From positions 10,540 through 74,539 of the forward strand of contig JBAZZC010000003.1 in assembly GCA_041658985.1 (NCBI GenBank): 64,000 bases of DNA, given 5' to 3'. Origin of the DNA: Minisyncoccota bacterium (lineage in GTDB: Bacteria > Patescibacteriota > Minisyncoccia > Phycocordibacterales > DATDWN01). Shown one piece after another: positions 3,148-20,419 of this stretch; within the stretch, counting starts at the first letter, position 1; every line of letters begins with the position of its first letter. The notes beneath the pieces were generated by a model. The model was given only the letters and a program-made list of their open reading frames with translations, had not been told where the DNA came from and did no database searches. A program made the position numbers and the translations under genes.

Positions 3148-4824
3148 CTATTCGGTTTCAATGTCAACCACTCTTTGCAATTCTTCCAAAGTAGTTATCC
3201 CTTGCAAAACTTTTAATATACCGTCTTGTCTTAAGTTCAAAATGTTTTGGGGTTTGGCGGCTTTTTCTATTTCTCTTTCACTTGGGTTATCCTTAACTAC
3301 ATTTTCAATATTTTCGTCCATGGTGATGGCCTCGTAGATTCCTATTCTACTTTTGTATCCAAGCATATTACATTTGTCACATCCGACTGCTTGCCAGATA
3401 TGTGTTTGGTCAATTCCATCTAAGTATGTTTTGTCAGTTATCGTATCTAAAATCTTATCTATGGTTACTTTACTCTCTCCATTAAGTGAAATCTGTTTTT
3501 TACATTCTGGGCAAAGTACTCTGACCAACCGCTGGGCTATTGCAAGATTTAAGGCAGAAGAAATAATTTTTGGATTAACTCCGAGGTCAATTAGGCGAGG
3601 GAATGTTCCTGCTGCCGTGTTGGTGTGAAGGGTAGAGAAGACAAGGTGACCCGTCAGGGCCGAGTTGATGGCAATCTCTGCTGTTTCTCCGTCTCTAATC
3701 TCACCAACCATAATAATATCGGGGTCCTGGCGAAGGGCACTTCGCAGACCTTCAGCAAATCCGTAATTCTTTTTTTCGTCTGTTTGGGTTTGAACTATTC
3801 CTGGCAGATGATACTCAATCGGATTTTCTATGGTGATTATTTTTATTTCTGGAGTGTGAACTTTTCTTAGAAATGCGTACAGTGCGGTAGTTTTACCAGA
3901 GCCGGTTGGACCAGTATTCAAAATCATGCCGTTTGGCTTACTCATCTCATGGAGAATAATTTTTAACAGACGTGGATGAATTCCTAAACTCTCAAGCGGG
4001 ACAGAAATAGAATTTGGATTAAGAACTCGAAGCACCACTGATTCGCTGTATGCTCCTGGCAGAAGGGAGGTTCTGATTTCAATTTCACCTTCGTTTATTT
4101 TTATACTAAAACGACCGTCCTGTGCGCCATAAACATTTAATTTTAAGTTAGAAATTAGTTTGATACGGGAGAGGAGTAATTTATATGTTTCTAAATCAAA
4201 ACGTAAAATATCAGTGAGCATACCGTCGAGTCTGTATCTTAACCTGACATAGTCTTCCTCTGCTTCTAGGTGGACATCAGAGGCGTTGGTAGCGATTGCT
4301 CCGGCTAAAATGATTTCCATTATTCTGGAGATACGGTAACTTTTTTTCATTTGCAAAACTTCCTCAATCAGACTTTGAACATCGGGTATAGTGTGAACTT
4401 TGGCTAAAAAGTCTGTGATTTGTTCGTTGGAAATATCCAAAGCCCCTGACTTTGTTTCAAATGAATATGATAAATCTTTATATCTGTCCCAGACTTTATT
4501 CAAACTGGCGTGGGAAACCATAAAAAGTTCTATGGTGTAACCTTTGGCTTTCAAGGCATTTAAGGCTTCTACTGTTTTAGGGTTTTCGGGAGATAGAGCT
4601 CCAATACTTAGAACTTTATCAACTTCATTGAACACGGCGATTTGGGCTTCGCGTGTTTCCACCTCCCCGATAACCCGAAGGGCGTCTATGTTTATTGGGG
4701 TAATAGTTAAATCAAGATAAGAGACCCCGTACTTTGACGACAGTATTTGAGCAAGCTCTTCTTCCTCTTGTCTGCGGAGGTCGTCCACTCGTTTATTTTG
4801 TTTGTCTTCATCAAAGATAACCAT
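3148..4824 (-). CDS. pilB: Type IV pilus assembly / type II secretion ATPase (PilB/GspE family)
   Basis: Walker A motif GPTGSGKTT, a GspE N-terminal domain and a C-terminal CxxC zinc motif; 558 aa. Confidence 0.85.
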   Translation of the reverse strand: MVIFDEDKQNKRVDDLRRQEEEELAQILSSKYGVSYLDLTITPINIDALRVIGEVETREAQIAVFNEVDKVLSIGALSPENPKTVEALNALKAKGYTIELFMVSHASLNKVWDRYKDLSYSFETKSGALDISNEQITDFLAKVHTIPDVQSLIEEVLQMKKSYRISRIMEIILAGAIATNASDVHLEAEEDYVRLRYRLDGMLTDILRFDLETYKLLLSRIKLISNLKLNVYGAQDGRFSIKINEGEIEIRTSLLPGAYSESVVLRVLNPNSISVPLESLGIHPRLLKIILHEMSKPNGMILNTGPTGSGKTTALYAFLRKVHTPEIKIITIENPIEYHLPGIVQTQTDEKKNYGFAEGLRSALRQDPDIIMVGEIRDGETAEIAINSALTGHLVFSTLHTNTAAGTFPRLIDLGVNPKIISSALNLAIAQRLVRVLCPECKKQISLNGESKVTIDKILDTITDKTYLDGIDQTHIWQAVGCDKCNMLGYKSRIGIYEAITMDENIENVVKDNPSEREIEKAAKPQNILNLRQDGILKVLQGITTLEELQRVVDIETE

Positions 4825-4861
4825 GTAAATATAATAACATTTCTTTTCAAGACACGCACAA

Positions 4862-4992
4862 AATCAAGAGTTTCTTTTTCATTGTATCTCTCAGAGAGAC
4901 ACGCATAAATTTCTGCTGAAATTTTGCTTGAGTTCGGCTCGACAGCCTCACTAGTCTCTCTTCAAGACACAACTCAACAAAACTCTTGATTT
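4862..4992 (+). promoter_or_regulatory. Conserved promoter/operator module, copy 1: TTGTAT-17-ATAAAT with a TCTCTCAGAGAGA palindrome in the spacer and a distal GTCTCTC
   Basis: About 85% identical to the reverse complement of 60462-60580, which lies upstream of recA. The -35 is at 4882-4887 and the -10 at 4905-4910. Short flanking inverted repeat AAATCAAGAGTTT / AAACTCTTGATTT. Confidence 0.55.
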
Positions 4993-5010
4993 TTAGCACC
5001 ATTAACTTAT

Positions 5011-5039
5011 TTGACAGAAGTGATAAAAGGGTGTATAAT
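5011..5039 (+). promoter_or_regulatory. Consensus sigma70 promoter (TTGACA-17-TGnTATAAT) for the GC-rich lipoprotein gene
   Basis: TTGACA at 5011-5016, a 17-nt spacer, and an extended -10 (TGTATAAT) at 5032-5039. A GGAGG Shine-Dalgarno lies at 5055-5059. Confidence 0.6.
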
Positions 5040-5069
5040 GTGGGATAGAGGCATGGAGGTGCCTGCGGT

Positions 5070-5729
5070 ATGAAAACATTGAGATTGCTCATGGTGTTAG
5101 CGGTCGTCGTTTCGGTGGCGGCCTGCGCCGGCAAGGTGGCTCCGGCCACCATTCCGCTCAGTGAGCGGATCGCCGAACTCAAGGCCCAGGAGGCCGAGAG
5201 GTTGGCGAACGAGACCCCCGAGGACCGGGCCATCAGGGCTCGCGCCGAGGAAATCGAGCGCGAGATGGCGACGAAGAAGGCCCGCGAGGAGGCCAAGAGG
5301 AGTGGCTCGCCGGCCATGCGCAAGGCCATTAAGGAGTTTGAGAAGGCCAAGAAGGCCATCACGAACTCCGGCCTTCAGGGGTGCGACCCGAGTACGGTCG
5401 ACGTCCACCCGGATGTGGCGCCGCGTCGGAACGCTAGTTCAACCGTGAAGGTTCAGGCGTTCAATCAGGGGCAGGTCCCCGTTGATATCTATGAGCCAAA
5501 ACACGGGCTAGTCGTTCGCAACCTGTGCCCCGGAGGGTCACTGACCCTCTTCCGGGCACGTCGGCTCGGGATTGACCCGGACTACATCCAGTTTCGGTAT
5601 GTCGCCAAGGCGATATTGTCGGACGGGCGGATGCTGACGGCTGAGTCACAGCAATACCAACTATCCAAGTACGACTGGTCGTCCGGTCGAGGGCGACAGG
5701 AGTACGACTGGTACATCGAGGTTCGATGA
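5070..5729 (+). CDS. Hypothetical secreted lipoprotein, GC-rich (about 62% GC), probably horizontally acquired
   Basis: Signal peptide with a lipobox (LAVVVSVAACAG). A strong promoter and Shine-Dalgarno precede it. The high GC makes the overlapping antisense ORFs artefacts. Confidence 0.6.
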   Translation: MKTLRLLMVLAVVVSVAACAGKVAPATIPLSERIAELKAQEAERLANETPEDRAIRARAEEIEREMATKKAREEAKRSGSPAMRKAIKEFEKAKKAITNSGLQGCDPSTVDVHPDVAPRRNASSTVKVQAFNQGQVPVDIYEPKHGLVVRNLCPGGSLTLFRARRLGIDPDYIQFRYVAKAILSDGRMLTAESQQYQLSKYDWSSGRGRQEYDWYIEVR

Positions 5730-5767
5730 GGTAGTCCACGCAACGTGCTGGCACCTCTGCACAACTG

Positions 5768-5810
5768 CCGGGAGGAGGGGTTCACACCCATCCTCCCAGG
5801 CGGTTTTTTC
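5768..5810 (+). terminator. GC-rich hairpin plus T-run terminator after the lipoprotein gene
   Basis: GGGAGGAGGGG ttcaca CCCATCCTCCC followed by GGCGGTTTTTTC. Confidence 0.55.
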
Positions 5811-5925
5811 ATCCAGGCACCAACTAAACGAGTTGAGCTCGTTTTTTCAATTTTTATTTTTGTTATTCGATGAACAGAATTGGCTAGAAGTAATACCGTG
5901 ATCTCGTTTAGTTGGTGCCTGGATG
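5810..5925 (+). repeat. Divergent R135-family element with perfect 25-bp terminal inverted repeats and an internal terminator-like hairpin
   Basis: CATCCAGGCACCAACTAAACGAGAT and its exact reverse complement ATCTCGTTTAGTTGGTGCCTGGATG. The interior has AACGAG-ttgag-CTCGTT followed by TTTTTT. The arm consensus resembles copy A (ATCC..CAC.CAACT). Confidence 0.6.
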
Positions 5926-5932
5926 AATATAA

Positions 5933-6066
5933 ATCCGCACACTAATTTTGCCATCGTTCTATTTTTTAAAACAAAACCAATACCATTTTTATTTTCTTAC
6001 TCAACTTCACACAAGTTAATATATTTGATTTAGAACTAAAAATAATGGCAAATTTAGTGTGCGGAT
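5933..6066 (+). repeat. R135 inverted-repeat element, copy B
   Basis: ATCCGCACACTAATTTTGCCAT ... ATGGCAAATTTAGTGTGCGGAT. It ends 22 nt before the tsaE start codon. Confidence 0.8.
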
Positions 6067-6088
6067 AAAATTATGCTAATATGTCTTT

Positions 6089-6523
6089 ATGAAATTTGTT
6101 TCAGAAAATTTAGAACAAACCCAAAAAATCGCAAATGATTTTGTCTCTACACTTTTATCAAATCCTGATAGGGCGACGGTTGTTGGTTTATACGGAAATC
6201 TTGGTGCAGGAAAAACCACATTTACTCAGTGTATAGCCAAAGCTTTTGGTGTGATTGATACAGTAACAAGTCCGACTTTTGTCCTGGAAAAGATTTATGA
6301 ACTAACCGACCAAAAGTTTACCCACTTAATTCATATAGATGCATATAGAATAGAAAAATCCAGTGAGCTTTTACATCTTGGTTGGAATGACTTAATTTCT
6401 GACCCAAACAACATAGTTCTTATTGAATGGCCAGAGAGGGTAGCGGACATTATGCCAGAGCATATAAAAATAAATCTTAGTCATATAACAGAAAATAGTC
6501 GGGAAATTGAGATTTTGGAATAA
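6089..6523 (+). CDS. tsaE: tRNA threonylcarbamoyladenosine biosynthesis protein TsaE
   Basis: P-loop motif YGNLGAGKTTF; the ~140 aa YjeE-family length fits TsaE. Confidence 0.8.
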   Translation: MKFVSENLEQTQKIANDFVSTLLSNPDRATVVGLYGNLGAGKTTFTQCIAKAFGVIDTVTSPTFVLEKIYELTDQKFTHLIHIDAYRIEKSSELLHLGWNDLISDPNNIVLIEWPERVADIMPEHIKINLSHITENSREIEILE

Positions 6524-6531
6524 TGGTATAA
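6522..6531 (+). promoter_or_regulatory. Extended -10 element (TGGTATAAT) placing a transcription start at the first nucleotides of R135 copy C
   Basis: TG at 6524-6525 and TATAAT at 6527-6532, about 7 nt upstream of the element start at 6535. Confidence 0.35.
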
Positions 6532-6534
6532 TTC

Positions 6535-6669
6535 ATCCGCACACTAAATTTGGCATTATCTCATAGTTGCTATACATGTGGTTATGTCAAATTTAATAAT
6601 CATGTTTAAATATAAGTATGCATCTAGAATTTGAGATAATAGCAACGATGCCAAAATTAGTGTGCGGAT
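6535..6669 (+). repeat. R135 inverted-repeat element, copy C
   Basis: ATCCGCACACTAAATTTGGCAT ... ATGCCAAAATTAGTGTGCGGAT. It ends 3 nt before the polA ATG. Confidence 0.8.
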
Positions 6670-6672
6670 AAA

Positions 6673-9024
6673 ATGGCCAAACCTAAAAGCAAAAAAACAC
6701 TGGTACTTCTTGATGTGCATGCTATTTTGCATCGTGCCTATCACGCCCTTCCGGAGTTTGAATCAAGTAAAGGTGAGCCGACGGGAGCTCTTTATGGGCT
6801 TTGCACCATGCTTATCAAGCTGGTAAAAGATTTTAATCCAGACTACATTATTGCTTGTTATGATTTGCCAGAGCCGACCTTACGACACGAAGCATATGGA
6901 GAATATAAGGCTGGTCGTAAAAAAGCTGACGATAATTTAGTAAAGCAGTTGGAGAGGTCAAAGGACGTTTTCAAGGCCATGAATGTGCCGATGTATTCGT
7001 CCCCAGGATTTGAGGCAGACGATATGCTTGGCACCATTGTTGAGAGCTTAAAAAATAACAAAGATATAGATATTGTTATTGCTTCTGGAGATATGGACAC
7101 CATGCAACTTATAAATGGTGATAGGGTGCGGGTTTACACTTTAAAGAAGGGAATAAAGGACACCATTATTTATAACGAGAAAGCAGTGATGGAAAGATGG
7201 GGCTTTGCTCCAAAACTTTTAACCGACTACAAGGGGTTGAGGGGCGACCCGTCGGATAACATAATTGGTATTGTGGGTATTGGGGAAAAAACAGCAGAAG
7301 AATTAATTCAAAAATTTGGTTCGATAGAAAATATATATAAAGAAATTAAAAATCCAAAATCTAAAATTCACAAAGAAGTTAGACCGAGGGTTTTAGAACT
7401 ACTTAAAACGGGAGAGGAAGAAGCTTTGTTTAGCAAAATGCTGGCTACCATTCGAATTGATGCACCGATTTATTTTACAATGCCCACAAAAATTTGGCGG
7501 GATGATATAGATATGAAAAAAGTTCAAGATTTGTTTTCACAATTTGAATTTAGAATGCTGGGGCAGAAATTTGCCGAGAGTCTATCTCTGGACATGCCAG
7601 AAAGAGCAGAAATAATGGCTAATCCTAAGGACGTATTTGAAGTTGGACTATTGCTCTGGGTAGTGGATTCAAACAAAACAAATTCTACGTTAGATGATAT
7701 TTTGTCGTATACCAGAAGCGACAATCTATCTGATGCTCGGAAGGTTTTGGAGAAGACAATAAAAGACCAAGACCTATCTTTTGTTGTAGAAAAAATAGAA
7801 AAGCCACTTATGCCAATTGTTGAGACAATGAAAGAGGTTGGTATAAAAATAGACACCGAAAGACTAAAAATTTTATCAAAGAAATACCACACAGAATTAT
7901 CGTCACTTGAGAAAAAAATATGGAAAATTGTCGGTGAGGAATTTAATATTAATTCACCAAAACAATTAGGTGAGATGCTTTTTGTTAAAATGGGGCTTAA
8001 AGTAAAAAACCAAAAGAAAACAGCTAGTGGTGGATTTTCTACAAAGGAATCAGAGTTGGAAAAATTAAAGGAAGAGTATCCGATTGCTGGATTAATCCTG
8101 GAGTATCGTAAATTAGCAAAACTTCTTGGCACTTATATAGATACCATGCCAACCCAAGTAGATAAAGGTGATAGGTTACATGCTAATTTTTTACAAGCTG
8201 GGACAACCACTGGCAGAATGGCAAGTCAGGACCCGAATTTGCAAAACATTCCAAATAAAACAGAGCTTGGTCGAGAAATTCGTAAATCGTTTATTGCCGA
8301 AAAAGGCTGGAAACTTATTTCGTTTGATTATTCCCAGATAGAGCTTCGTATTGCTGCTTTCTTGTCGGGGGATAAGAAACTAATTGAGATTTTTAAAACA
8401 GGCCAGGATGTCCACACTGCTGTGGCTTGCGAAGTTTTCGGAGTCAAACCAGAAGAGGTAACAAAGGAGATGAGAATAAAAGCAAAAACCATAAATTTTG
8501 GTGTGATGTATGGAATGGGTGTAACTGCTCTACAGAAAAATATTAAAACAAACAGAGAGGAGGCCCAGGAATTTTTGAATGGATATTTTAATAAATTTTC
8601 TGGACTAGCTGAATATCTAGAAAAAGTAAAAAGGGAAACGGCCCAAAAGGGCTTTACCTCGACATTTTTTGGTCGCAGGAGATATTTTCCTGAAATCAAT
8701 TCCAGACTACCTTTTATGAAGGCCCAAGCAGAAAGAATGGCAGTCAATGCGCCGATACAGGGGACAGAGGCAGACATAATCAAAATGGCTATGATAGAAA
8801 TTGATAGATTTATAAAAAGTAAGAATTTAGAAAAGAACGTCCAATTGCTTTTGCAGGTTCATGATGAGTTGGTATACGAAGCAAAAGAAAATATAGTTAA
8901 TTCAATAACTCCAGAAATAAAAGTAATAATGGAAAATATAATTGACCCAAAAAAAATACACGGAATAGTTTGTGTAGCGAATAGCTCCTTTGGAGACAAT
9001 TGGGCAGAAATGATATCAGTATAA
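6673..9024 (+). CDS. polA: DNA polymerase I (5'-3' exonuclease plus polymerase domains; 3'-5' exonuclease region reduced)
   Basis: N-terminal FEN-like domain, a helix-hairpin-helix, and polymerase motifs A (DYSQIELR), B (RIKAKTINFGVMYG) and C (QVHDELV). 783 aa. Confidence 0.9.
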   Translation: MAKPKSKKTLVLLDVHAILHRAYHALPEFESSKGEPTGALYGLCTMLIKLVKDFNPDYIIACYDLPEPTLRHEAYGEYKAGRKKADDNLVKQLERSKDVFKAMNVPMYSSPGFEADDMLGTIVESLKNNKDIDIVIASGDMDTMQLINGDRVRVYTLKKGIKDTIIYNEKAVMERWGFAPKLLTDYKGLRGDPSDNIIGIVGIGEKTAEELIQKFGSIENIYKEIKNPKSKIHKEVRPRVLELLKTGEEEALFSKMLATIRIDAPIYFTMPTKIWRDDIDMKKVQDLFSQFEFRMLGQKFAESLSLDMPERAEIMANPKDVFEVGLLLWVVDSNKTNSTLDDILSYTRSDNLSDARKVLEKTIKDQDLSFVVEKIEKPLMPIVETMKEVGIKIDTERLKILSKKYHTELSSLEKKIWKIVGEEFNINSPKQLGEMLFVKMGLKVKNQKKTASGGFSTKESELEKLKEEYPIAGLILEYRKLAKLLGTYIDTMPTQVDKGDRLHANFLQAGTTTGRMASQDPNLQNIPNKTELGREIRKSFIAEKGWKLISFDYSQIELRIAAFLSGDKKLIEIFKTGQDVHTAVACEVFGVKPEEVTKEMRIKAKTINFGVMYGMGVTALQKNIKTNREEAQEFLNGYFNKFSGLAEYLEKVKRETAQKGFTSTFFGRRRYFPEINSRLPFMKAQAERMAVNAPIQGTEADIIKMAMIEIDRFIKSKNLEKNVQLLLQVHDELVYEAKENIVNSITPEIKVIMENIIDPKKIHGIVCVANSSFGDNWAEMISV

Positions 9025-9103
9025 TGTATAACGTATTATGTATAAAACACTGACCCAGATTCCATACGTTATACTTTATACATAATACTTTATACATACT
9101 CAT

Positions 9104-9817
9104 ATGATTTATTTTTTACACGGCACAGATACACACAAAAGTCGGAAGAAAATGCATGAAGTTTTGCAGAGTCTTTCTGCTAAAAGACCAAATTCTGAAA
9201 TTTTTAAAATAACAACGGAAAATTGGAGCGAGGGGCAATTCAATGAGCTTTTAGAATCACAGGGATTATTTGATAAAAAATATATTGTTGTTTTAGATTC
9301 TCTTTTCTCAAACAAGGAAGCTAAGGAAATTGTTGCGGGTGGATTAAAAAAAATGCAAGAAGCAGAACATTGGTTTTTGATTTTAGATGGCAAGATTGAT
9401 TCAGCAACAGTAAAAAAAGTAGAAAAAGCCTCTTATAAATCACAGGAATTTAGTGAGAAGGAAGTAAAAAAAGAATCACCAATCATTTTTTCTATTACAG
9501 ACAAACTTTTAAACAGAGATAAAAAGAAATTATGGATTTCATTTACTGATTTGTTAAGTCAGGGAATACCAGTAGAGGAAATTCACGGAGTGCTTTTTTG
9601 GGCAATGAAAAATATGATTATAGCCGGAAAGGTTTCAAGTCAAAAAGAATCTGGGTTAGCACCTTTCTCATACAGTAAAGCGCTTTCTGGAAGTAGAAAC
9701 TATAAATCAGAGGAATTACAAAAAATGTCATCCGATTTGATTGAGATGACACACAGGGTTCGTCAGGGGGAGGGGGATTTAGAAGTGATGATGGAGAAGT
9801 GGATTTTGGAGAGATAA
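9104..9817 (+). CDS. Hypothetical protein, possibly a DNA polymerase III delta subunit (HolA-like)
   Basis: N-terminal MIYFLHGTD resembles the start of the delta subunit. It lies directly downstream of polA. The similarity is weak. Confidence 0.4.
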   Translation: MIYFLHGTDTHKSRKKMHEVLQSLSAKRPNSEIFKITTENWSEGQFNELLESQGLFDKKYIVVLDSLFSNKEAKEIVAGGLKKMQEAEHWFLILDGKIDSATVKKVEKASYKSQEFSEKEVKKESPIIFSITDKLLNRDKKKLWISFTDLLSQGIPVEEIHGVLFWAMKNMIIAGKVSSQKESGLAPFSYSKALSGSRNYKSEELQKMSSDLIEMTHRVRQGEGDLEVMMEKWILER

Positions 9818-9821
9818 ATTC

Positions 9822-9865
9822 TTAAAAACGAAAGGGGCCCCAAGCGACAAAAATGTCGGGGCCCC
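9822..9865 (-). terminator. GGGGCCCC...GGGGCCCC hairpin, T-rich on the minus strand
   Basis: Two self-complementary octamers at 9834-9841 and 9858-9865, followed on the minus strand by TTTCGTTTTTAAG. Confidence 0.4.
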
Positions 9866-9884
9866 ATGTCGGACCAGACCGAGG

Positions 9885-10034
9885 TTACCGGAGAACGTTG
9901 TCGTGTCTCAGTCGTCGGCGGAAATCACCGAGAAGGAGACGAATGACAAGTCCGGCAACAATCACGTAGGCTAACATCGCTGCGCCTACGACGGAGTCTT
10001 TCACTGCCACCACGGAAGACGTTATCTTGTGCAT
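9885..10034 (-). CDS. Small GC-rich hydrophobic peptide (49 aa), hypothetical
   Basis: ATG preceded by an AAGGAGAGG Shine-Dalgarno. Hydrophobic core LAYVIVAGLVIRLLL. GC is about 57% against a ~34% background. Confidence 0.35.
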   Translation of the reverse strand: MHKITSSVVAVKDSVVGAAMLAYVIVAGLVIRLLLGDFRRRLRHDNVLR

Positions 10035-10313
10035 CCGAACCTCTCCTTGGTGAGTTGTGACCTCTTTGATTAATGCTACTCAGAAGTTTAGAAAAAGCAA
10101 ATATAAGAATTAAACAGGGTGTGAATTGGACTTTCTTGAGATTTTTGTTATATTTTGTAGGTTAATAGAGTGTTTACGGTCAGGGATAATTTTCTTGCCG
10201 TCGCAAGAAAATTTCCACGACCCTGCCTCGCCTGTTTTGCATGGTAGCAAAACATGGCTGTGGCTCGCAAAAGCTTTTAATAAGTCAAAGCAGTTTGATT
10301 TATTAAAGCATTT

Positions 10314-10386
10314 GCGCCCGTAGCTCAGTCGGTAGAGCAGCTCCCTTTTAAGGAGATGGTCGCAGGTTCGATTCCTGCCGGGCGCA
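10314..10386 (+). tRNA. tRNA-Lys (anticodon TTT)
   Basis: Acceptor stem GCGCCCG/CGGGCGC, D-arm TAGCTCAGTCGGTAGAGC, anticodon loop CTTTTAA, T-arm GGTTCGATTCC. Confidence 0.85.
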
Positions 10387-10660
10387 CAATTAAAAAATCT
10401 CTGTGGTGGGGATTTTTTAATTGTGCGCCCGGAGCAAGAGTGTGGGGCACTCTTGCGTCAGGAATCGAACAGATTCACGGTTTACGCTCGCAGAAGCGAG
10501 TGTTGTGAATCTGCGTTTTAAATTCTGATGAGTGACGACGAATCAGAATTTAAAAAGATTCCGTCCAGAAAAGGTGTACTGACCATGTAATGGTCGATAT
10601 TCCTGCCGGGCGCACAAACCAAAAAATCTCCACTGCTGGAGATTTTTTGCACTAGTGTGC
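10387..10660. repeat. tRNA-Lys 3'-end duplications and hairpin repeats (scars of site-specific integration)
   Basis: A direct copy of the tRNA 3' end (CGATATTCCTGCCGGGCGCACAA) lies at 10595-10617. An inverted, interrupted copy lies near 10425-10475. Hairpins AAAAAATCTCC..GGAGATTTTTT are shared with repeats at 18566-18703 and 23259-23396. Confidence 0.55.
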
Positions 10661-10775
10661 TGACCGGAATACAATATAATTATAATAACTTTTAGTTGAG
10701 AGTTGAGTTTAGGTTTTATAAAAAGCAGGCACACAGAGATTCCCTGTGTGCCTGTTCAAGTGGTACTCTCCGACC

Positions 10776-12185
10776 TTACCCCAAGCGCTTGAGAAAAGCT
10801 GTTACTTCGGGCGGTAGCGGGAGCGATGGCGAAAAGACCGCTTCGTATTTGTAGTGACGGTAGGCGCCGAACACGCTCTGGAGTTCTTCTGGCGTGTGCG
10901 TCTCGTCTTGAACGACCTTCTTAATCGCCCCCAGAAGATGAGGGAAATCGACAGCAAGAGAGAAAAGCTTGTGAAGCACATCCACTTGCAGTCGATGTGG
11001 CAGACGAATTGGAGACCGGTAGTGATATGTCGAGAAGACACTCTCAACACTGTCAATCAAACCCTCCCGCAAACTCTGCTCCCCGAGCCGAGTCCCTGGA
11101 TAGGGGGTGAAAATTGAAACCCAGGCAAAATCAGGTTTGAGTTGAGTGTTGAACTCAACCGTCTCGTAGTCGTTGTCCAAGGTTGTGCCGGGAAAACCCA
11201 AAATATTCTGGGTAAAAACGGCAATACCCTGGGCGCCAAGCAACTTCCGCGCCAGAATCATCTGGGCTTTGCTAATCCGCCTGCCCAAAAGTTCTGTGCG
11301 CACCTTGTCATTACCAGCTTCTACACCCATGAAAATCTTCGCGCAACCTCCTTGCTTTAAGAGTGTAGCAACTTCTTCGTTTACCAAATCGGCCCGCAGG
11401 GAACAGATAAACGGCATGCCGATCTCAGCACGATACCTCGACACAAAGGTGCGAAGTCGAGGTCGATCAAGTACGAAAATGTCGTCGTGAAAATTGATGG
11501 TTTTCAGATTATGGTGCATCTTCAGTTCCACCAGCTCCGCCATCAAATTTTCCGCCGAGCGAGTTCTGACAAACTTCCCCTTGCTCATATAAAGAGTGCG
11601 CAAGGGTCTATTGGCGCAGTACGAACAGTCGTAGGGGCAACCTCGACTTGAAAAGACGCAATATTCCCCGTCAGCGGGAACGCGCTGAAAGAGATCTCGG
11701 TCTGGGAAAGGCAACGCATCGAGGTTCGCCACTAGTGGGCGCACTTCATTGCGATACACGACACCCTTCTCCTTGATCCAGAAATTGCGTATTTCTCTGA
11801 TCGATGAGTGGGTTTTGATCGCTTGGGCCAGCTCCACAACCGCCTCATCTCCCTCTCCGATTCCAATGACGTCCACCGCCTCATGTGTCAGAATCTCTGG
11901 CACAAGAGTCGGATGAAAACCACCAAAAACAGAGAGAAATGGGTGCCGCCGCTTGAGCCGACTGCACAATTCCAAACAATGCGTCTGTTCGCCCGTGATG
12001 ACGCTAAACATCACCACATCCGGAACGAATTCTTCGAATATTCGTTCGGTATCCTCTTGGCTGGACAGAGAGCCGCGGACGACAAACCCATGTTGCTTGA
12101 GTGCTGACGAGAGATACATCGCCCCAAGCGGTTCATCGACCAAAGCAGGACTAACGATCAAAATCCGCGGGTAATCTTTGTCCAT
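10776..12185 (-). CDS. B12-binding domain radical SAM protein (GC-rich, about 55% GC)
   Basis: CxxxCxxC motif (CPYDCSYCAN), an N-terminal cobalamin-binding-like domain, a GGAGG Shine-Dalgarno, and foreign base composition. Confidence 0.75.
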   Translation of the reverse strand: MDKDYPRILIVSPALVDEPLGAMYLSSALKQHGFVVRGSLSSQEDTERIFEEFVPDVVMFSVITGEQTHCLELCSRLKRRHPFLSVFGGFHPTLVPEILTHEAVDVIGIGEGDEAVVELAQAIKTHSSIREIRNFWIKEKGVVYRNEVRPLVANLDALPFPDRDLFQRVPADGEYCVFSSRGCPYDCSYCANRPLRTLYMSKGKFVRTRSAENLMAELVELKMHHNLKTINFHDDIFVLDRPRLRTFVSRYRAEIGMPFICSLRADLVNEEVATLLKQGGCAKIFMGVEAGNDKVRTELLGRRISKAQMILARKLLGAQGIAVFTQNILGFPGTTLDNDYETVEFNTQLKPDFAWVSIFTPYPGTRLGEQSLREGLIDSVESVFSTYHYRSPIRLPHRLQVDVLHKLFSLAVDFPHLLGAIKKVVQDETHTPEELQSVFGAYRHYKYEAVFSPSLPLPPEVTAFLKRLG

Positions 12186-12196
12186 TTCTCAAACCT

Positions 12197-12270
12197 CCAG
12201 GTTTGATACTACAATGTTGATAGTCTTTTCTAGGAACTTCTAAGTTTGATAATACAATGTTTATAGGTCT
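12197..12270. repeat. Imperfect tandem direct repeat (~31-bp unit GTTTGATAcTACAATGTTgATAGTCT) upstream of the radical SAM gene
   Basis: Two units at 12197-12226 and 12239-12270. Confidence 0.5.
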
Positions 12271-12326
12271 ATTGTCAATATTTAAATAAAATTTACACCG
12301 CCCTCATCTCCCTAATATACAACAGC

Positions 12327-12749
12327 TTAAAACTTATATTCTTCTTTCATTGACCGACGATACCAAAGGTAGGATATAATTGCCAACCCCAACAAAATCC
12401 AAGCAAGTAATGGTCCGGGTGTGTACGTGTCGGCAACATTCCACAGATTGATTTTTTGTAGGGAGATAGAGCCGTTTACTGTGGCAACATCATCAATAAG
12501 ATTGCTGTCCCGTGTTTCTATATACTTCAGATTTTCTTGTCCATATTTAATTCGTGTATCAACTCCGCCTATCTTTGTTTGATAATTTCTGTTTTCATTT
12601 ATAATTTCAGATTCAAGATTGCCAATCTCAACTTGCAACTGATTAATTTTATTTAGAATCTCTGCCTGACGTACTGGTGTCGCAATTTTATACTCGGCTT
12701 TGAGGGTTGTTACTTCTGAATTTATAGAGTTAATCCTAGTTTGATACAA
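12327..12749 (-). CDS. Hypothetical coiled-coil protein with a C-terminal transmembrane helix
   Basis: TTG start. The same frame stays open upstream into the end of the preceding gene, so this may be a frameshifted extension. Confidence 0.4.
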   Translation of the reverse strand: MYQTRINSINSEVTTLKAEYKIATPVRQAEILNKINQLQVEIGNLESEIINENRNYQTKIGGVDTRIKYGQENLKYIETRDSNLIDDVATVNGSISLQKINLWNVADTYTPGPLLAWILLGLAIISYLWYRRSMKEEYKF

Positions 12750-12805
12750 AGAAATGTTTTGGTTGTGATTTCTTACGATTTGTTGTCTTTCTGCGTTTAA
12801 ATCAC

Positions 12806-13552
12806 TTAGGTTGTTTTGGACTTGCTTCTGGTTTTGTTCAAGGGCTTGTTTTTGAGAAAGAAGGTTTTAGAATTTGTTTGTTCAATGTAAAATCTTGACC
12901 CCACTAAGTTTTTTACCTCTTCTCTGAAAGCATCAAATTCACTTTTTGGTATAGCAAAACTAATGTCGCCCCATTTGTCTCCGCTATTTGATGTATCCAC
13001 CCTTCCGTTAAAGCCCCTAACCATGATTTCTATCCTATTTTTTGTATCGGACACTTGTCTAGTTTGAAGTGTTGCATTGTAGTTAATTTTTAGAAACTCC
13101 CTTTTATCAGAAATGGCTCCGCTTGGTTGTGGCACTGGAGGAGTTGGTCTGTAAATGTTTATTTCTGGAGCATACATAACCCTAGATTCATCTGAGGCGA
13201 CTATTTTATTAGCAGTATTACCTGTTGCACTGGTTTGTTCTACTGAATCTCTAGCATTGTTGCTGTAGTCAATTGCTTCTACAGAAGGTATTTCAATACC
13301 ACCGCTTGAGACGGTGAAGTTTTTACTGACACCACCTGAACCATAGCTTATAAGTAGAGTAATTACGGCCATTGTTGCAAAGGCATATGAAAACCATGGA
13401 GAATGATGTTGGGCGTAAGGAGATATTTTATCTACAACGACAGGAACATTTGATAAAATCTCTCTTTTTAGCGCCTCATTATTTTGAGGTGTTTGTTGTT
13501 TGTTTTTTCCCCAAGATTCAAGTATGTCATGAATTGTTTTGTGATTAGTCAT
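12806..13552 (-). CDS. Putative anti-sigma factor (membrane-anchored)
   Basis: Overlaps the ECF sigma gene by 4 bp (ATGA). N-terminal cytoplasmic segment, then a transmembrane helix (ATMAVITLLISYG), then an extracytoplasmic domain. Confidence 0.5.
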   Translation of the reverse strand: MTNHKTIHDILESWGKNKQQTPQNNEALKREILSNVPVVVDKISPYAQHHSPWFSYAFATMAVITLLISYGSGGVSKNFTVSSGGIEIPSVEAIDYSNNARDSVEQTSATGNTANKIVASDESRVMYAPEINIYRPTPPVPQPSGAISDKREFLKINYNATLQTRQVSDTKNRIEIMVRGFNGRVDTSNSGDKWGDISFAIPKSEFDAFREEVKNLVGSRFYIEQTNSKTFFLKNKPLNKTRSKSKTT

Positions 13553-14040
13553 ATTTGTTGGTTTTTAAGTATAAGTTTTGCGGCTCCCAAAGCACGGTGC
13601 ATTCTGACTCTTATTGTCACAGGATTTGTTTTAAGAATTTTTGCAATATTGTTTAGTGGCAGGCCGGCGATATAGTGTAAATTAATAAGCTCTTGGTCAC
13701 TTAGAGAAAGTTGAGCTAACATTTGGTCTATAAAAATTTTATCTTCTTCTTTTGAATTTATTTCTTCTTTGTCGTGTATTACGGGGTCAAACGGAATTTC
13801 TCTTTTGGGTTTGCGCCAATGTTGTTTGCACTCATTTCGGGCGATGGCAAATAGCCACGAAGAAAAACTAGTGTCATTGCGATTATCAAATTTAGGAAGC
13901 GCCTCAATAGCCTTAAGCCAGGTGGTCTGTAATATGTCTTCGGCCAGGTTTTTGTCGTGCAGGGTGTTCACTAGATAACCGTATAATCTTGGGGTTATAG
14001 TATCCCACAGCGCACCAATGTGGTCTTTATTTAAGGTCAT
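13549..14040 (-). CDS. ECF-type RNA polymerase sigma-70 factor
   Basis: Region 2 (DILQTTWLKAIE ... WLFAIARNE) and a region 4 helix-turn-helix (LSDQELINLHYIAGLPLNNIAKIL). Confidence 0.8.
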   Translation of the reverse strand: MTLNKDHIGALWDTITPRLYGYLVNTLHDKNLAEDILQTTWLKAIEALPKFDNRNDTSFSSWLFAIARNECKQHWRKPKREIPFDPVIHDKEEINSKEEDKIFIDQMLAQLSLSDQELINLHYIAGLPLNNIAKILKTNPVTIRVRMHRALGAAKLILKNQQI

Positions 14041-14115
14041 TTTATTTATGAAGTATGATCACATTAAGTATAATGCATCAACTAGGCAAAATGTTACAAT
14101 TTGACCAATTTTTAT

Positions 14116-14484
14116 TTATAGAGGCAGATCTAAAGCAAAAAATCCTGGGCCAGTGAACAATAAAGACAATAGAATAACTTTTATTACCACATATAAAATT
14201 TTCTTCTCTGTTGAAAAAGTAGCTGAGTTATTTTCTAAAAAATAATCAAAACAAATTACTAAGATGGAAACAATAGCTGCTATTTGTGTATAAAAACCAG
14301 CAATGAGTAAAATACCAGACAAAATATAAATAACTGCTGACCAACTGTAGATTTTCTGGTTACGCTCTTTTCCGAGATATATCATAAACAGACCTACAGT
14401 TAGACGGAGTAAGGTTGGAGCGATAAGTCCAAGAAAAAATAATTGTGGAAAAACAGCTAATGGATGCATGAAAATAGTATACAA
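14116..14484 (-). CDS. DoxX-like small membrane protein
   Basis: Four predicted transmembrane helices; 122 aa. Confidence 0.4.
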   Translation of the reverse strand: MYTIFMHPLAVFPQLFFLGLIAPTLLRLTVGLFMIYLGKERNQKIYSWSAVIYILSGILLIAGFYTQIAAIVSILVICFDYFLENNSATFSTEKKILYVVIKVILLSLLFTGPGFFALDLPL

Positions 14485-14487
14485 TAA

Positions 14488-14583
14488 CTAATTTCTAATT
14501 ACTAATTAATCTAAATAATGACCAAACCCCAATAATCAGCTAGTATTTCTTTAGAAATTAGAAATTAGGTTAATTAGAAATTT
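14488..14583. repeat. Cargo-less pair of four-helix-bundle-cassette-type inverted repeats (MITE-like)
   Basis: CTAATTTCTAATTACTAATTAATCTAAATAATGACC, a 27-bp spacer, then TTAGAAATTAGAAATTAGGTTAATTAGAAATTT. Confidence 0.5.
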
Positions 14584-14612
14584 GTTTGGTATGTGTTATA
14601 TTGCTATAAATT

Positions 14613-15095
14613 ATGAAAAAATCTAACCTTCAGATTTCTGTCTTACTGCACAATATTCGTAGTACTCACAATGTTGGGTCTATTTTTCGGACCTCTGATG
14701 CTCTGGGTATCACCAAGATTTATTTATCTGGATTTTCTCCTACACCGGTAGATAAATTTGGAAAACCAAGAAAAGATATCACAAAAGTAGCCTTGGGTGG
14801 AGAAAAAAATATTTCTTGGGAGTATTCAAAAAATCCAGAAAAAATAATTAAAAAACTAAAAAAATCTAACTATCAAATAATTGGTTTGGAACAAACAAAA
14901 AATTCACAGGATTATAAAAAGGTAAAAATTAAATCCCCGACTTTATTTATAGTAGGGAATGAGGTGGAAGGGGTTGAAAGAAAGATTTTATCTCTTTGTG
15001 ATGTTCTAGTTGAAATACCAATGAAAGGTAAAAAGGAGTCACTAAACGTTTCTGTGGCTTTCGGGGTGGCTCTCTTTAGAATACTTAATATTTGA
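14613..15095 (+). CDS. SpoU/TrmH family RNA 2'-O-methyltransferase
   Basis: SPOUT motifs HNVGSIFRTSDALG and IVGNEVEGV. Confidence 0.75.
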   Translation: MKKSNLQISVLLHNIRSTHNVGSIFRTSDALGITKIYLSGFSPTPVDKFGKPRKDITKVALGGEKNISWEYSKNPEKIIKKLKKSNYQIIGLEQTKNSQDYKKVKIKSPTLFIVGNEVEGVERKILSLCDVLVEIPMKGKKESLNVSVAFGVALFRILNI

Positions 15096-15972
15096 GTGTA
15101 TCCACCACTTTTCCAAAATTATCGTATAGAATAATAACCTCACGTTTGTCTTTCCATAAACTCTCACCACGTTTTAGATATACTCTCCACTCTTTCAAAT
15201 AAAAATCCTTGTCATTTTTATGAGTGTCTACGCACGAAGAATAGTTTATTTTTTTTGATATAAAGTTATTACACTCAACACCCAAATATTGTGGGGGTGT
15301 TTCCGTTTGGATTCTGCACGTTGGCATTGAATCAATATAGTCAAAACAACGGTCATTGGCTGTTATTTTTGGTATGGAAGAAAGGTCCTCGTCTCTAGGT
15401 GCCGGACAATTGCTGTTTAGGTAAGGAACAAAAGTTTGAAATTGTCCGAGATATCCAGAACATTTGTTGGCTCTAAAACTGCTACCATTTGGAGAAATAC
15501 CGGTAATGAGATATAAAGTATCTCCGCCGATTAGAAATATATTATCTTCTGTGTTCATTACTCCAGCAAAAAATAAGTATGATGCTTTTGGTATTAATAT
15601 TTGATTTTTTGTGTTCAGGCTTTTTAAAATCCAGCCAGTAACGGGTACCGTTCCCGTCGCATTATTGGCCATTTTTATGGTGACATATTCTTGGCTTGGA
15701 TTTGTGGACCTATTTATATATGAAAGTGTTATCACCCCCTTGTACTGACTCTGGGTTTTTTTGTCCTCCTCTATCTGAAGTTGCTTTTTTAAATCATCAA
15801 TCTGATTTTGGGTGTCTATAATTTTTTGTTCAACTGATACCTCTGTCTGTTTTTGGGTTTCATTGCCGGTGGGGGCTGGTTGGGTGACACCGGCGTTTTT
15901 ACTACCACCAAATAAAGCAATGGCCACGATAGCCAGTAGAATTAAAATTCCTGTTGAGTCTTCTTTACTCAT
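15085..15972 (-). CDS. Membrane-anchored secreted protein, possibly with a lamin-tail-like domain
   Basis: N-terminal transmembrane helix, a coiled coil, a NATGTVPVTGWILKS motif, and a Cys-rich C-terminus. Confidence 0.35.
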   Translation of the reverse strand: MSKEDSTGILILLAIVAIALFGGSKNAGVTQPAPTGNETQKQTEVSVEQKIIDTQNQIDDLKKQLQIEEDKKTQSQYKGVITLSYINRSTNPSQEYVTIKMANNATGTVPVTGWILKSLNTKNQILIPKASYLFFAGVMNTEDNIFLIGGDTLYLITGISPNGSSFRANKCSGYLGQFQTFVPYLNSNCPAPRDEDLSSIPKITANDRCFDYIDSMPTCRIQTETPPQYLGVECNNFISKKINYSSCVDTHKNDKDFYLKEWRVYLKRGESLWKDKREVIILYDNFGKVVDTLKY

Positions 15973-16011
15973 ATTTCTCTATTTTACAACAAAATTACCC
16001 AAAATGCTTTA

Positions 16012-16146
16012 CCCGCACACCAATTTTGGCATTGTCTCTATATTGCCACATCAATAATTATATAAAGAACGAGTCATTTTCATCTAAGTAAGGTTGTTTA
16101 ATTATCTTGAGAGACTGGGCAATGATGCCAAATTTGGTGTTCGGGT
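16012..16146 (+). repeat. R135 inverted-repeat element, copy D
   Basis: CCCGCACACCAATTTTGGCAT ... ATGCCAAATTTGGTGTTCGGGT. It ends exactly at the mutM stop codon. Confidence 0.8.
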
Positions 16147-17046
16147 TTATTTTTGGTGGACATTGCAAAAATGGCTAGTTCTACCCCCGATTATCTTTCT
16201 CATAATAATCCCTCGGCAGTCCTTTTTTAGACATTTTTCTTCTGTCCTTTGGTAAACCTTGTGGCTGTTTTGAAATCTACCTCTTTTTCCATCAACATTC
16301 CTGTAGTCTGACATAGAATCTCCTCCCATTTTGATTGACTTTGTAAGAATGGTTTTTATGGCTTTCCACATGGTTTTTAACTCTTTGTCTTTTAAGTTTG
16401 AAGTTTTTCGTTCCGGATGTATTTCTGCCGTCCACAAGATTTCGTCCGAATAAATATTACCAATTCCAGCGAGGATTGTTTGGTCCATTAAAACAGTTTT
16501 TATTTTTCCGTTGGGTTTTTTCAATAATTGTTTTTTTAATGTTTCTAGAGATAAGCCGGGGATTGATTCTGGTCCCAAGATTGTTAGGTCAATAACTTCG
16601 TTTCTTTTGCTGGTTTCAAAAAGAGTTACTTTGGCAAATTTGCGCATGTCGGAGAAAGCCAGGTGTTTCTTGTTTGAAAATGTAAATAAGAGATGAATAA
16701 ATTTATTGAATGGGTCAGAAAGAAGTTTTTCGTTACTTCTCCACTTTTTGTTTTCCCAGAGATATTTTCCATATAAAAAGTGTCCAGTCATTTTCATATG
16801 AGCCAAGATTGTTTTGTTGTTTGTCAGGTGAATAAGAATATTTTTTCCTCTCCGCTCGGTGTTTTTTACTTTTTCACCAACGACTTCCTCTCTAAAATGT
16901 TCGAAAAAACCCTTGTTTTTAATTACATCCTCTCGTTTATTTTTTGTTCGCAAAAAATAATCAGACCAAACATCTGTGATTTTGAGATTTTTAATGGTTC
17001 TGTTGAGACCATTAACTGTCGTTTGTACTTCGGGCAATTCAGGCAT
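16147..17046 (-). CDS. mutM: Formamidopyrimidine-DNA glycosylase (Fpg/MutM family)
   Basis: MPELPEV N-terminus (catalytic Pro2) and a C-terminal zinc finger with four Cys/His. Confidence 0.85.
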   Translation of the reverse strand: MPELPEVQTTVNGLNRTIKNLKITDVWSDYFLRTKNKREDVIKNKGFFEHFREEVVGEKVKNTERRGKNILIHLTNNKTILAHMKMTGHFLYGKYLWENKKWRSNEKLLSDPFNKFIHLLFTFSNKKHLAFSDMRKFAKVTLFETSKRNEVIDLTILGPESIPGLSLETLKKQLLKKPNGKIKTVLMDQTILAGIGNIYSDEILWTAEIHPERKTSNLKDKELKTMWKAIKTILTKSIKMGGDSMSDYRNVDGKRGRFQNSHKVYQRTEEKCLKKDCRGIIMRKIIGGRTSHFCNVHQK

Positions 17047-17054
17047 TTTGTATT

Positions 17055-17087
17055 TACTTTATGGACTTTATAACTTTATAAACTTTT
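17055..17087. repeat. Tandem 9-bp ACTTTATAA-type repeats in the mutM promoter region
   Basis: TACTTTATGGACTTTATAACTTTATAAAC. Similar arrays lie at 37144-37180 and 54041-54073. Confidence 0.5.
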
Positions 17088-17093
17088 GACTCA

Positions 17094-17681
17094 CTACGAT
17101 AGTAGTTTCATTGCCTTTTTTATTTTTTCCCCGGTACTTTTTTCACCCCCTGCTTTTTTCAGTGCTTCTCGCGCCTCACGTTCACCAAACCCCAGAGATT
17201 TTAGGGCCTCGAGAGCGTCAATGTCGTCGGAAAGGGAAGACCCATCACTTCCAACGTGTTCTAGCTTGTCTCGGAGTTCTACAACTATTTTCTCGGCATT
17301 TTTCTTGCCAACCCCGGAGACTTTTGTAAGATGTGCCGTGTCACCTGTAACTATTGCCTGGCGTAAGTTTTGGAGTGAAGCGATGTTTAAGATACCAAGG
17401 GCCGACTTTGGTCCAATGCCAGAAACGGTTAAGAGAAGCTCAAAAAAGTTAAGTTCCTCCCTCGTTCCAAATCCATATAAATCTAGGGCATTTTCTCTAA
17501 CAGCCAAATGTGTCCAAAATTCTGTCGTAGCTTGCGCCTTATATGATTTATTGCCTTCGCTTCGCTCCGGCGAGGACAGGGAGGCTGTATTTGTGTAGAT
17601 TTTATAACCAACACCAGAAACATCCAGTGTTATTGATTTTAAGTCTTGGTGTATTATCTTTCCTTTTAAATATCCAATCAT
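17094..17681 (-). CDS. ruvA: Holliday junction DNA helicase RuvA, carrying a 52-bp in-frame repeat insertion
   Basis: MIGYLKGKI start and HhH motifs (VSGIGPKSA). The loop sequence SPERSEGNKSYKAQATT is encoded by a segment shared with rlmI. Confidence 0.85.
   Translation of the reverse strand: MIGYLKGKIIHQDLKSITLDVSGVGYKIYTNTASLSSPERSEGNKSYKAQATTEFWTHLAVRENALDLYGFGTREELNFFELLLTVSGIGPKSALGILNIASLQNLRQAIVTGDTAHLTKVSGVGKKNAEKIVVELRDKLEHVGSDGSSLSDDIDALEALKSLGFGEREAREALKKAGGEKSTGEKIKKAMKLLS
17522..17573 (-). repeat. 52-bp GC-rich in-frame repeat (copy in ruvA)
   Basis: 50 of 52 bp identical to 34096-34147. Encodes SPERSEGNKSYKAQATT. Confidence 0.8.
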
Positions 17682-17844
17682 AATAGCTATTGTATCATTT
17701 TGTTGTGTTTTTTCGAAGTTTGTGTATTATATTACCAATATGCCTATAACCCCATACCAGAGCAAAGCTCGGTACGGGGCAGGAAGTTCCAGTTTTGATT
17801 TTATTTATGTAAATACAATTATTATATAAATCGGTTTATATCAT

Positions 17845-18105
17845 ATGCCCATAACAACATCAGCAAAAAAAGCCCTAAGAGGCTCCAAAAGAAAGAGGGA
17901 GTTTAATATTGTTAAAAAAGAACTTTTAAACAAGGCTGTTAAGAAAGTTAAAAAGTTGATTGTAGAAAAAAAGACAAAAGAAGCTCTTGCTATGATGCCG
18001 GAGGTTCAGAAGATAATTGATAAGTCTGTAAAAACGGGATTATTAAAGAAAAACACTGCAGCCAGAAAGAAGTCAAGAATCTCTGCCATGATAAAAAAAA
18101 CTTAA
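17845..18105 (+). CDS. rpsT: 30S ribosomal protein S20
   Basis: Lys/Arg-rich helical 86 aa with the SAKKALR motif. Confidence 0.8.
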   Translation: MPITTSAKKALRGSKRKREFNIVKKELLNKAVKKVKKLIVEKKTKEALAMMPEVQKIIDKSVKTGLLKKNTAARKKSRISAMIKKT

Positions 18106-18112
18106 AAACAAA

Positions 18113-18558: not shown

Positions 18559-18565
18559 AAACTTT

Positions 18566-20395: not shown

Positions 20396-20419
20396 AAAAA
20401 AATAATAAAAATTAATTTT

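Follow-up and report, generated by a model that had tools for sequence, protein, structure and literature searches.

The tRNA-Lys(UUU) gene at 10314-10387 (+ strand) of the window, the 64,000-nucleotide stretch of DNA analyzed here, is followed by direct and inverted copies of its own 3′ end, and the question is what these copies are. The initial annotation took them for scars of repeated site-specific integration and excision at the edge of a radical SAM gene island. The tRNA gene is intact and does not encode CCA; ARAGORN and Rfam agree on the call (74.2 bits). The last 19 nucleotides of tRNA-Lys, 10371-10389, form the left copy of a direct repeat, X (ATTCCTGCCGGGCGCACAA), whose second exact copy is at 10599-10617, with none expected from 100 shuffles. 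The direct copy had been reported as 23 nucleotides at 10595-10617; the position holds, but the exact match is 19 nucleotides long, and the CGAT ahead of it comes with a 2-nt insertion. The inverted, hairpin-split copy, placed at about 10425-10475, is present in two parts. One part, 10411-10432, matches the reverse complement of the tRNA end plus A-tract (10378-10399) over 22 nt without a mismatch; the other, 10456-10470, is GTTCGATTCCTG(A)C (T-loop and T-stem) read on the opposite strand; and a 24-nt hairpin at 10433-10456 keeps the two apart. The nested hairpins are also real, as the segment 10388-10660 folds far beyond its shuffles (z = -14 on the + strand and -13 on the - strand). An independent assembly (ENA ERZ27249449, L206) is 99.985% identical to window 4776-18184, the tRNA-Lys locus included, so the structure is no assembly artefact of one data set.

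Downstream of the tRNA, all features lie on the + strand. Hairpin H0 (10390-10420), terminator-like in its succession of A6, stem, loop, stem and T6, forms the tip of the perfect 22-bp palindrome 10378-10399/10411-10432 and has homologs at 10620-10649 and downstream of both tRNA-Arg genes. It is followed by A′ (10421-10432, TTGTGCGCCCGG), the inverted acceptor 3′ strand plus trailer, which has the option of pairing with 10378-10389 or with 10606-10617; by hairpin P2a (10433-10456), which interrupts the inverted copy and whose stem varies among relatives while pairing is kept; and by T′ (10457-10470, GTCAGGAATCGAAC), the inverted T-loop and T-stem, of which 10461-10466 pairs with 10557-10562 as helix 1. 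The diverged, variant core occupies 10471-10557 and contains hairpins M4 (10470-10513, with an inner hairpin at 10485-10502) and M5 (10516-10555, loop GAGTGACGACGA), the counterparts of H1 and H2. Beyond it lie X1 (10557-10563, GATTCCG), a first, truncated direct copy of the T-loop/T-stem; module M7 (10573-10598), composed of GGTGTAC, the hairpin GACCA-TGTAA-TGGTC and GAT; and X2 (10599-10617), the exact 19-nt right-hand copy of the tRNA-Lys 3′ end. L055, L065 and L012 have the full direct copy beginning at the position of X1. M7 precedes the direct copy in several elements, and a near-identical sequence stands ahead of the tRNA-Ile end copy in L087.

A further, truncated canonical unit occupies 10618-10670 (+; nhmmer model positions 6-76, E = 5e-13). 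It comprises H0 (10620-10649, loop CTGC), X′ (10650-10660), which pairs with GCGCAC via one G·T, and about 9 nt of core start (10661-10669, TGACCGGAA) that stop where the radical SAM insert begins. Its 26-nt hairpin, 10622-10647, is identical to the hairpins after both tRNA-Arg genes. Upstream of the tRNA, a mirror canonical unit lies on the - strand at 10170-10320 (nhmmer E = 5e-21). Its core, 10178-10265, scores 95.7 bits with R1, our covariance model of the core, of whose training set this copy is a member; R1 E-values are rough throughout. Its H0 (loop CTGC) and palindrome, 10266-10320, reach into the 5′ acceptor strand of the tRNA; the reverse complement of that strand, CGGGCGC, substitutes for the tRNA 3′ end. 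The mirror unit is found at the identical place in L002, L005, L008, L011, L016, L019, L023 and L175, with 86.8% identity between the window and L019. Judged by sequence, the tRNA-Lys locus is a stack of three copies of one element family around the tRNA: one mirror, one variant and one truncated canonical. Several units have piled up at the locus, and on this point the initial annotation is supported. Just outside the mirror unit, 10135-10160 carries the motif TTG(T/G)TATATTTCAAGGG, conserved at the equivalent sites in L005, L008, L011 and L016. It resembles an extended -10 promoter and is a candidate for that of tRNA-Lys; if it is a true -10 promoter, the antisense of the mirror unit would form a leader of ~150 nt.

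The same family stands at two other tRNA genes of the window. Canonical units follow tRNA-Arg(GCG) at 18545-18712 (-; core 18568-18655, then CAC-A; R1 96.2 bits) and tRNA-Arg(UCU) at 23240-23405 (-; core 23261-23348, then a CACATAA repeat; R1 94.7 bits). After each tRNA-Arg, a 52-nt palindrome made up of the tRNA end and the 26-nt hairpin precedes ~120 nt of conserved hairpins. The common frame of the family is X, H0 (A/T tracts and a CTGC loop), X′, a 3-nt spacer, the core and X, in which X′ is the complement of the local tRNA end, either of the acceptor strand alone or of the acceptor strand plus the T arm, sometimes split by a hairpin. Units are ~150-230 nt in size, rich in hairpins and without ORFs, and the core consists of two hairpins and exists in several variants. 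From this conserved anatomy it follows that the "inverted copy" is the 5′ strand, and the "direct copy" the 3′ strand, of a helix that closes the core. The variant unit has the same makeup: a two-hairpin core at 10471-10557, T′ before it at 10457-10470 and X copies after it at 10557-10563 and 10599-10617. The attL/attR-like signature seen by the initial annotation is thus correct to the extent that a direct repeat brackets inserted DNA at a tRNA gene; rather than scars, the inverted copy and the hairpins are conserved, covarying parts of an element family present at many tRNAs.

How widely the frame recurs was established with profile and covariance-model searches, which replaced a scan for 10-nt complements (two mismatches at most) at 126 tRNA ends that was too blunt. 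The element frame follows tRNA-Lys in most of 26 relatives, and the profile search finds units beside tRNA-Lys, tRNA-Arg and tRNA-Ser in relatives. Metagenome contigs of 34-59% GC carry units at tRNA-Pro, Gly, Leu, Cys, Ser, Phe, Met, Tyr, Ile, Ala, Arg and Lys, and with relatives and metagenomes taken together the layout is seen beside over 50 tRNA genes, which represent many isoacceptors. Among copies recovered by searches seeded from the same element family (a metagenome scan, then profile filtering), association with a tRNA end is seen in 47 of 61, wherever the flank sufficed. The elements always face away from the tRNA, in sense orientation when downstream and mirrored when upstream, an arrangement that is symmetric at the DNA level and asymmetric at the RNA level. 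Conservation of the tRNA-Lys flanking structure in all relatives, named beforehand as evidence against scars, is largely what we find, yet in many relatives rather than all; the empty tRNA-Lys site that had been suggested as a comparison exists in L014 and L074, which have no element.

The units match the particular tRNA beside which they lie. In a T-loop class, X begins at T-loop position 57 and reaches the 3′ end or, in some cases, a point beyond it; in a 3′-end class, X comprises only the 3 terminal tRNA nucleotides and 3-4 of the trailer. For the T-loop class, the longest string shared with the sequence after the core averages 12.1 nt for the local tRNA versus 4.8 nt for other tRNAs. The direct copy is exact over 18 nt at four loci and over 28 nt in L100, and in L009, L010 and L023 both the inverted and the direct copy share the local tRNA's own substitutions. 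Near-identical core halves occur at tRNA-Lys, tRNA-Ile and tRNA-Ala of different organisms.

Some further arrangements were noted in these loci. Tandem arrays of complete or decaying units stand behind single tRNAs in L091 (1-280), L176 (1-260), L100 (2990-3200) and L155 (1120-1400); the L091 core is followed by a further tRNA-end copy, spacer and T′, and L091 and L176 repeat whole units. A "type C" core (GGGGTCGGGAAA ... GGAAAACCGTGGGTTTCC) is found in L010 (17665-17875), L064 (7933-8075) and L132 (~490-590), within the T′/X frame after tRNA-Arg and tRNA-Ile; the frame is therefore common to several unrelated interiors. At the tRNA-Lys position of L006, L008, L011, L016, L017 and L055, ARAGORN gives the label "tRNA-Stop (tta)". 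Their anticodon loop, CTTTTAA, is that of tRNA-Lys(UUU), from which four of the six genes differ by just 1 nt over the whole sequence; the label reflects an anticodon shifted by one base and not a suppressor tRNA.

The fold of the core is marked by covariation. When 54 distinct cores are aligned, two irregular hairpins emerge in which 92% of cells are paired, versus 70.6% in shuffles and ~40% with slid partners, and 342 compensatory cells are observed versus 92 expected. G·U occupies one pair in 39 of the 54 cores and another pair in 15 of the 54. Read on the opposite strand, these positions do not pair, and hence only the sense strand of the element folds, mirror copies included. The loop sequences CTGC and GACG are conserved. 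R1 recovers the three canonical cores of the window and also 10471-10557 (38.4 bits, E = 6e-8, full model length), which is outside its training set. Across six orthologs of this variant core, pairing extends to 98.2% of cells, compensatory changes are seen at 11 pairs, and columns 124-139 hold an invariant G·U. Among 80 PolA loci, R1 matches only Paceibacteria-like relatives. The closing helix is long in the T-loop class, 4-7 bp in the 3′-end class and missing in mirror copies; with all copies pooled, its mean run of 4.8 is weakly above the control value of 3.8 for mismatched partners.

No known RNA accounts for these structures in Rfam 15, where only tRNAs of the window reach the gathering score and matches to 10050-10780 at E ≤ 10 are noise. 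A group I intron, a tmRNA-like molecule or another known RNA was rejected for want of an Rfam match. A hammerhead ribozyme was rejected as well: the CUGAUGA at 10526-10532 is not kept in L019 or L012, and there is no Rfam match. The published tRNA introns of Patescibacteria, in the work found, are anticodon-loop introns only.

The locus belongs to ordinary chromosome, given that the window encodes PolA, HolA, TsaE, RuvABX, RecA and FtsK. The closest PolA relatives are in Parcubacteria/Paceibacteria MAGs (82% amino-acid identity to Candidatus Zambryskibacteria). A backbone of T2SSE-orf-TsaE-PolA-HolA-[variable]-orf122-SpoU-LTD-Fpg-RuvA is common to ~25 relatives, and tRNA-Lys sits within the variable HolA-orf122 interval in either orientation, accompanied by 0-6 kb of unrelated cargo that is always 3′ of the tRNA. 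In ~25 relatives this interval with tRNA-Lys is a hot spot of changing gene content, the changes falling without exception 3′ of the tRNA. Relative to the closest relative, the entire interval is inverted (window 9817-14116 vs L019 13468-16011); the inverted part holds a sigma factor, a DUF4349 protein, orf140, and tRNA-Lys with its elements. A 55% GC patch at 5001-6000 contains ORF 5070-5729 (219 aa, no Pfam match), which has weak homologs (27-48% identity) at the same position in many relatives and is thus no island despite its composition.

The radical SAM gene, which the repeats had been thought to bound, lies outside the element. The cargo insert (10671-12326, -) is missing from all relatives' loci; it carries a B12-binding radical SAM gene (10776-12185, -) of 51% GC in a genome of ~36% GC, with its own terminator at 10726-10754. 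A tblastn search of the relatives' loci returns no homolog, so the gene is probably a recent acquisition. No third copy of the tRNA-Lys end brackets it at up to three mismatches, bar an unrelated tRNA-Arg end. The island begins inside the truncated element at ~10670, and its far end, 12186-12326, has no tRNA-derived sequence, which removes the basis for an island bounded by repeats. On these sequence grounds the insert is a separate insertion that truncated the last unit, without bracketing tRNA repeats. The upstream region of the gene, 12186-12326, contains a 23-nt direct repeat, GTTTGATAnTACAATGTTnATAG.

Element content changes quickly at orthologous sites. Across 17 relatives, the tRNA-Arg(GCG) site holds nothing, a plain terminator or an element of one of five types; it is empty in L006, L009, L020, L067, L074 and L031. 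L002 and L003 have 86% PolA nucleotide identity, yet different element types at tRNA-Lys. Between the window and L019, the trailer is 92.7% identical, compared with 74.7% for PolA and about 74% for HolA. L003 also contains a stand-alone unit preceded by a decayed tRNA end, inside cargo. Short-read contigs end at the element, and a search of metagenomes with a 34-nt junction pattern found neither a circular junction nor the exact empty allele of the window's strain.

In sum, the units have a common architecture, recur at many tRNAs, carry X′ and X matched to the local tRNA, are selected for the fold of one strand and turn over rapidly at orthologous sites. The best explanation, to which we give an even chance, is that they form a family of small, non-autonomous elements of Paceibacteria-type Patescibacteria, site-specific in that each inserts at the 3′ end of a tRNA gene and regenerates that end. 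A unit would recombine with a tRNA gene inside X, restoring the tRNA and leaving a second X at the far side in the manner of an att site, and repeated events at one tRNA would yield tandem or nested units. Since X′ pairs with X, the recombination site of the single-stranded sense form would sit in a duplex that mimics the end of the tRNA gene. At tRNA-Lys, an older canonical unit (10618-10670) would have been the first to settle after the tRNA; the variant unit, 10390-10598, would then have inserted between the tRNA and the older unit, duplicating 19 nt; and the radical SAM gene would later have truncated the older unit, with the mirror unit on the 5′ side.

The closest known system is that of integrative elements and islands at the T-loop and 3′ end of tRNA genes, including integrase-less, att-flanked CIME-type elements and tycheposon satellites, with which we compare the units by description only. 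Both insert at the tRNA 3′ end and regenerate it, leave a direct repeat at the far side, accrete in tandem and form hot spots of variable cargo. The direct repeat with a regenerated tRNA is present (19 nt at tRNA-Lys and 18-28 nt at other tRNAs), and related genomes contain empty sites at tRNA-Lys and tRNA-Arg(GCG). Unlike these elements, however, the units measure 150-230 nt, have no genes, contain the att segment once more in inverted orientation as well as a core that is conserved and covaries, and also stand, mirrored, at the tRNA 5′ end. No integrase is seen nearby, nor any recombinase gene within or beside an element among the ORFs scanned. The units would be a variant of integrative DNA that targets tRNA genes, and there is a genuine possibility that their way of choosing the target is new.

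A second likeness is to integron attC sites and the attP(+) of CTX phage, which have the same order of direct copy, content, inverted copy, variable structured part and direct copy, a strand-specific fold with conserved non-Watson-Crick positions, and a site made duplex by an internal complement. An imperfect palindrome folding on one strand only, as in attC, is found in the units, with G·U at 39/54 and 15/54 in the two pairs described and at 6/6 in the variant core. This likeness suggests a recombinase that would act in trans on folded single-stranded DNA. The units differ in their target, a tRNA gene and not attI or dif, and in a tRNA-specific repeat of 6-28 nt. An integron attC site or gene cassette was rejected, as the consensus has no RYYYAAC ... 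GTTRRRY boxes and no IntI was found.

PATEs (IS200/IS605-derived) and REP/BIME are likewise short, ORF-less, intergenic and hairpin-rich, form strand-specific single-strand structures, and are mobilized in trans with an internal complement to the cleavage or target site. Theirs is a fixed target of 4-5 nt without target duplication, whereas the flanking copies of the units are much longer and change with each tRNA. An IS200/IS605-type PATE or REP was rejected on this account: the left flanks are different tRNA ends, each recurring at the right, and not one fixed tetra- or pentanucleotide. For a MITE, the terminal complementary segments (X′ and X) should not change with the local tRNA as they do, and the duplication is 6-28 nt and not fixed. 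Finally, H0 is like the intrinsic terminator of a tRNA gene, a hairpin with A-tract, GC stem and T-tract directly 3′ of the tRNA. It differs from a plain one in its conserved CTGC loop, in a stem that reaches into the tRNA and in the X′ and core that follow; a terminator alone accounts for only ~30 nt per unit.

The reading as mobile elements faces objections of its own. The mirror units at one tRNA-Lys place in at least nine relatives look like vertical inheritance under selection. Neither a recombinase nearby, nor a viral copy, nor an empty allele of the window's strain was found. The very high conservation of cores across distant hosts would also fit an RNA useful to the host, and the sequence signal alone is the same for folds of single-stranded DNA and of RNA. 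Furthermore, the reading gives no account of how a unit gains the 3′ end of a new tRNA when its target changes.

These objections lead to the strongest rival, which we regard as possible but well short of probable. The units would be host RNA modules co-transcribed with tRNAs, with A′/T′ and X as a tRNA-like acceptor and T stem and the core in the place of the T-loop; they would serve in tRNA precursor processing, stability or regulation and would have spread by duplication along with tRNA ends. Strong covariation with conserved G·U pairs, the conserved CTGC and GACG loops, conservation across hosts of 34-59% GC and the retention of mirror units at tRNA-Lys in at least nine relatives all speak for an RNA, and a tRNA-like top half can be drawn, with A′ as the tRNA 5′ acceptor strand and T′ starting with the 5′ strand of the T-stem. 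In most units, however, the core lies behind a hairpin and a run of 5-7 T that resemble an intrinsic terminator, with no space for a promoter. Mirror copies keep the G·U pairs of the sense strand and yet are antisense to the tRNA, between the candidate extended -10 motif and the gene. The complementarity extends to the genomic trailer (CAA) and not to the mature CCA end, and the direct copy is far longer than a closing helix requires. Many orthologous sites lack a unit or have an unrelated variant of the core, and no Rfam family corresponds to the units. If the units are RNAs after all, they would be a new class of tRNA-linked structured RNA in hosts with minimal regulatory repertoires.

Slightly less probable still is a more specific proposal in which the antisense segments A′/T′ are a base-pairing guide, in folded single-stranded DNA or RNA, that would choose the tRNA end for a recombinase encoded elsewhere, the target being regenerated and units stacking up. 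If so, the elements would be a new programmable class of tRNA-end-specific mobile DNA confined to Patescibacteria, and insertion guided by an internal complement would be a new case of nucleic-acid-guided site choice.

The scar model of the initial annotation, in which ordinary islands or prophages encoding an integrase left attL/attR remnants at tRNA-Lys and one of them delivered the radical SAM gene, is improbable. It draws on the 19-nt direct repeat of the tRNA 3′ end, the variable cargo 3′ of tRNA-Lys among relatives, the displaced, degenerate tRNA end within the L003 cargo and a radical SAM gene that is compositionally foreign and missing in relatives. The repeats, however, enclose just 209 nt with conserved covarying hairpins, the repeat pair does not include the radical SAM gene, whose far end has no tRNA repeat, and the inverted copy is left unaccounted for, though it occurs at dozens of other tRNAs. 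Nor is there an integrase in the scanned window ORFs, the cargo of eight relatives or 87 neighboring ORFs. For the segment 10371-10617 the model is largely refuted. Least probable is a non-functional by-product of replication, in which template switching at a terminator palindrome copied the tRNA end first inverted and then directly: it can yield the direct-inverted-direct order and would suit the perfect 22-24-bp palindromes running from terminator hairpins into the tRNA end, to which it may contribute at H0, but it gives perfect Watson-Crick arms and leaves unexplained the G·T in 39/54 cores, the conserved loops and the two-hairpin core shared by many taxa and tRNAs; palindrome homogenization by this route cannot yield the G·U pattern of a single folding strand.

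For the preferred reading as non-autonomous elements at tRNA ends, a recombinase was sought in several places. Pfam detects no recombinase or transposase in 40 ORFs of the window, a set that leaves out ~25 ORFs between 29 and 57 kb, no recombinase in 20 cargo ORFs from eight relatives, and none, nor any enrichment, among 87 ORFs near elements. The absence of an integrase gene, noted from the start, thus extends from the window ORFs scanned to the cargo of the eight relatives and the 87 ORFs neighboring elements. In IMG/VR, the M4 22-mer has no match; the tRNA-Lys end matches an unrelated high-GC contig (L082, a tRNA fragment) and four others that include tRNA-Arg genes; and 11 matches to a core pattern are chance hits, 0/11 being confirmed as core by R1. 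INPHARED phages match the tRNA and not the element. A limited search of full-text literature, which is no proof of absence, found no description of such tRNA-end elements, and the family has apparently not been described before.

The mobile DNA of Patescibacteria is poorly known, and a family of this kind would explain assembly breaks and "partial tRNA" repeats. It would also mark hot spots where accessory genes, for example the radical SAM gene, are gained and lost, and R1 offers a defined sequence and structure model with which the missing recombinase can be sought through co-occurrence.

The window contains other repeats. A second intergenic family occurs at 2699-2839, 5926-6079, 6528-6674, 20258-20400, 36063-36209 and 52655-52798, with a single arm at 16004-16041. 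Its arms of ~25-30 nt (ATCCGCACACTAAnTTTGGCAT ... ATGCCAAAnTTAGTGTGCGGAT) surround 60-90 nt of variable sequence, and each copy forms a long hairpin (-37 to -57 kcal/mol) whose right arm often stops just ahead of a start codon. A 110-nt sequence is present, 85% identical and inverted, upstream of the T2SS ATPase gene (4872-4981) and upstream of recA (60468-60577), and may be a common leader or small RNA; both copies match R1 weakly (15 and 13 bits), probably through hairpin similarity only. A 52-nt inverted repeat, 96% complementary, has its copies 16.5 kb apart at 17522-17573 and 34096-34147, one of them inside the ruvA ORF (17094-17681). Finally, a perfect 25-nt palindrome, TATCATACGATATATCGTATGATAT, is identical at 26517-26541 and 26936-26960, on either side of a Trp-repressor-like gene (and at ~59160), and may be an operator.
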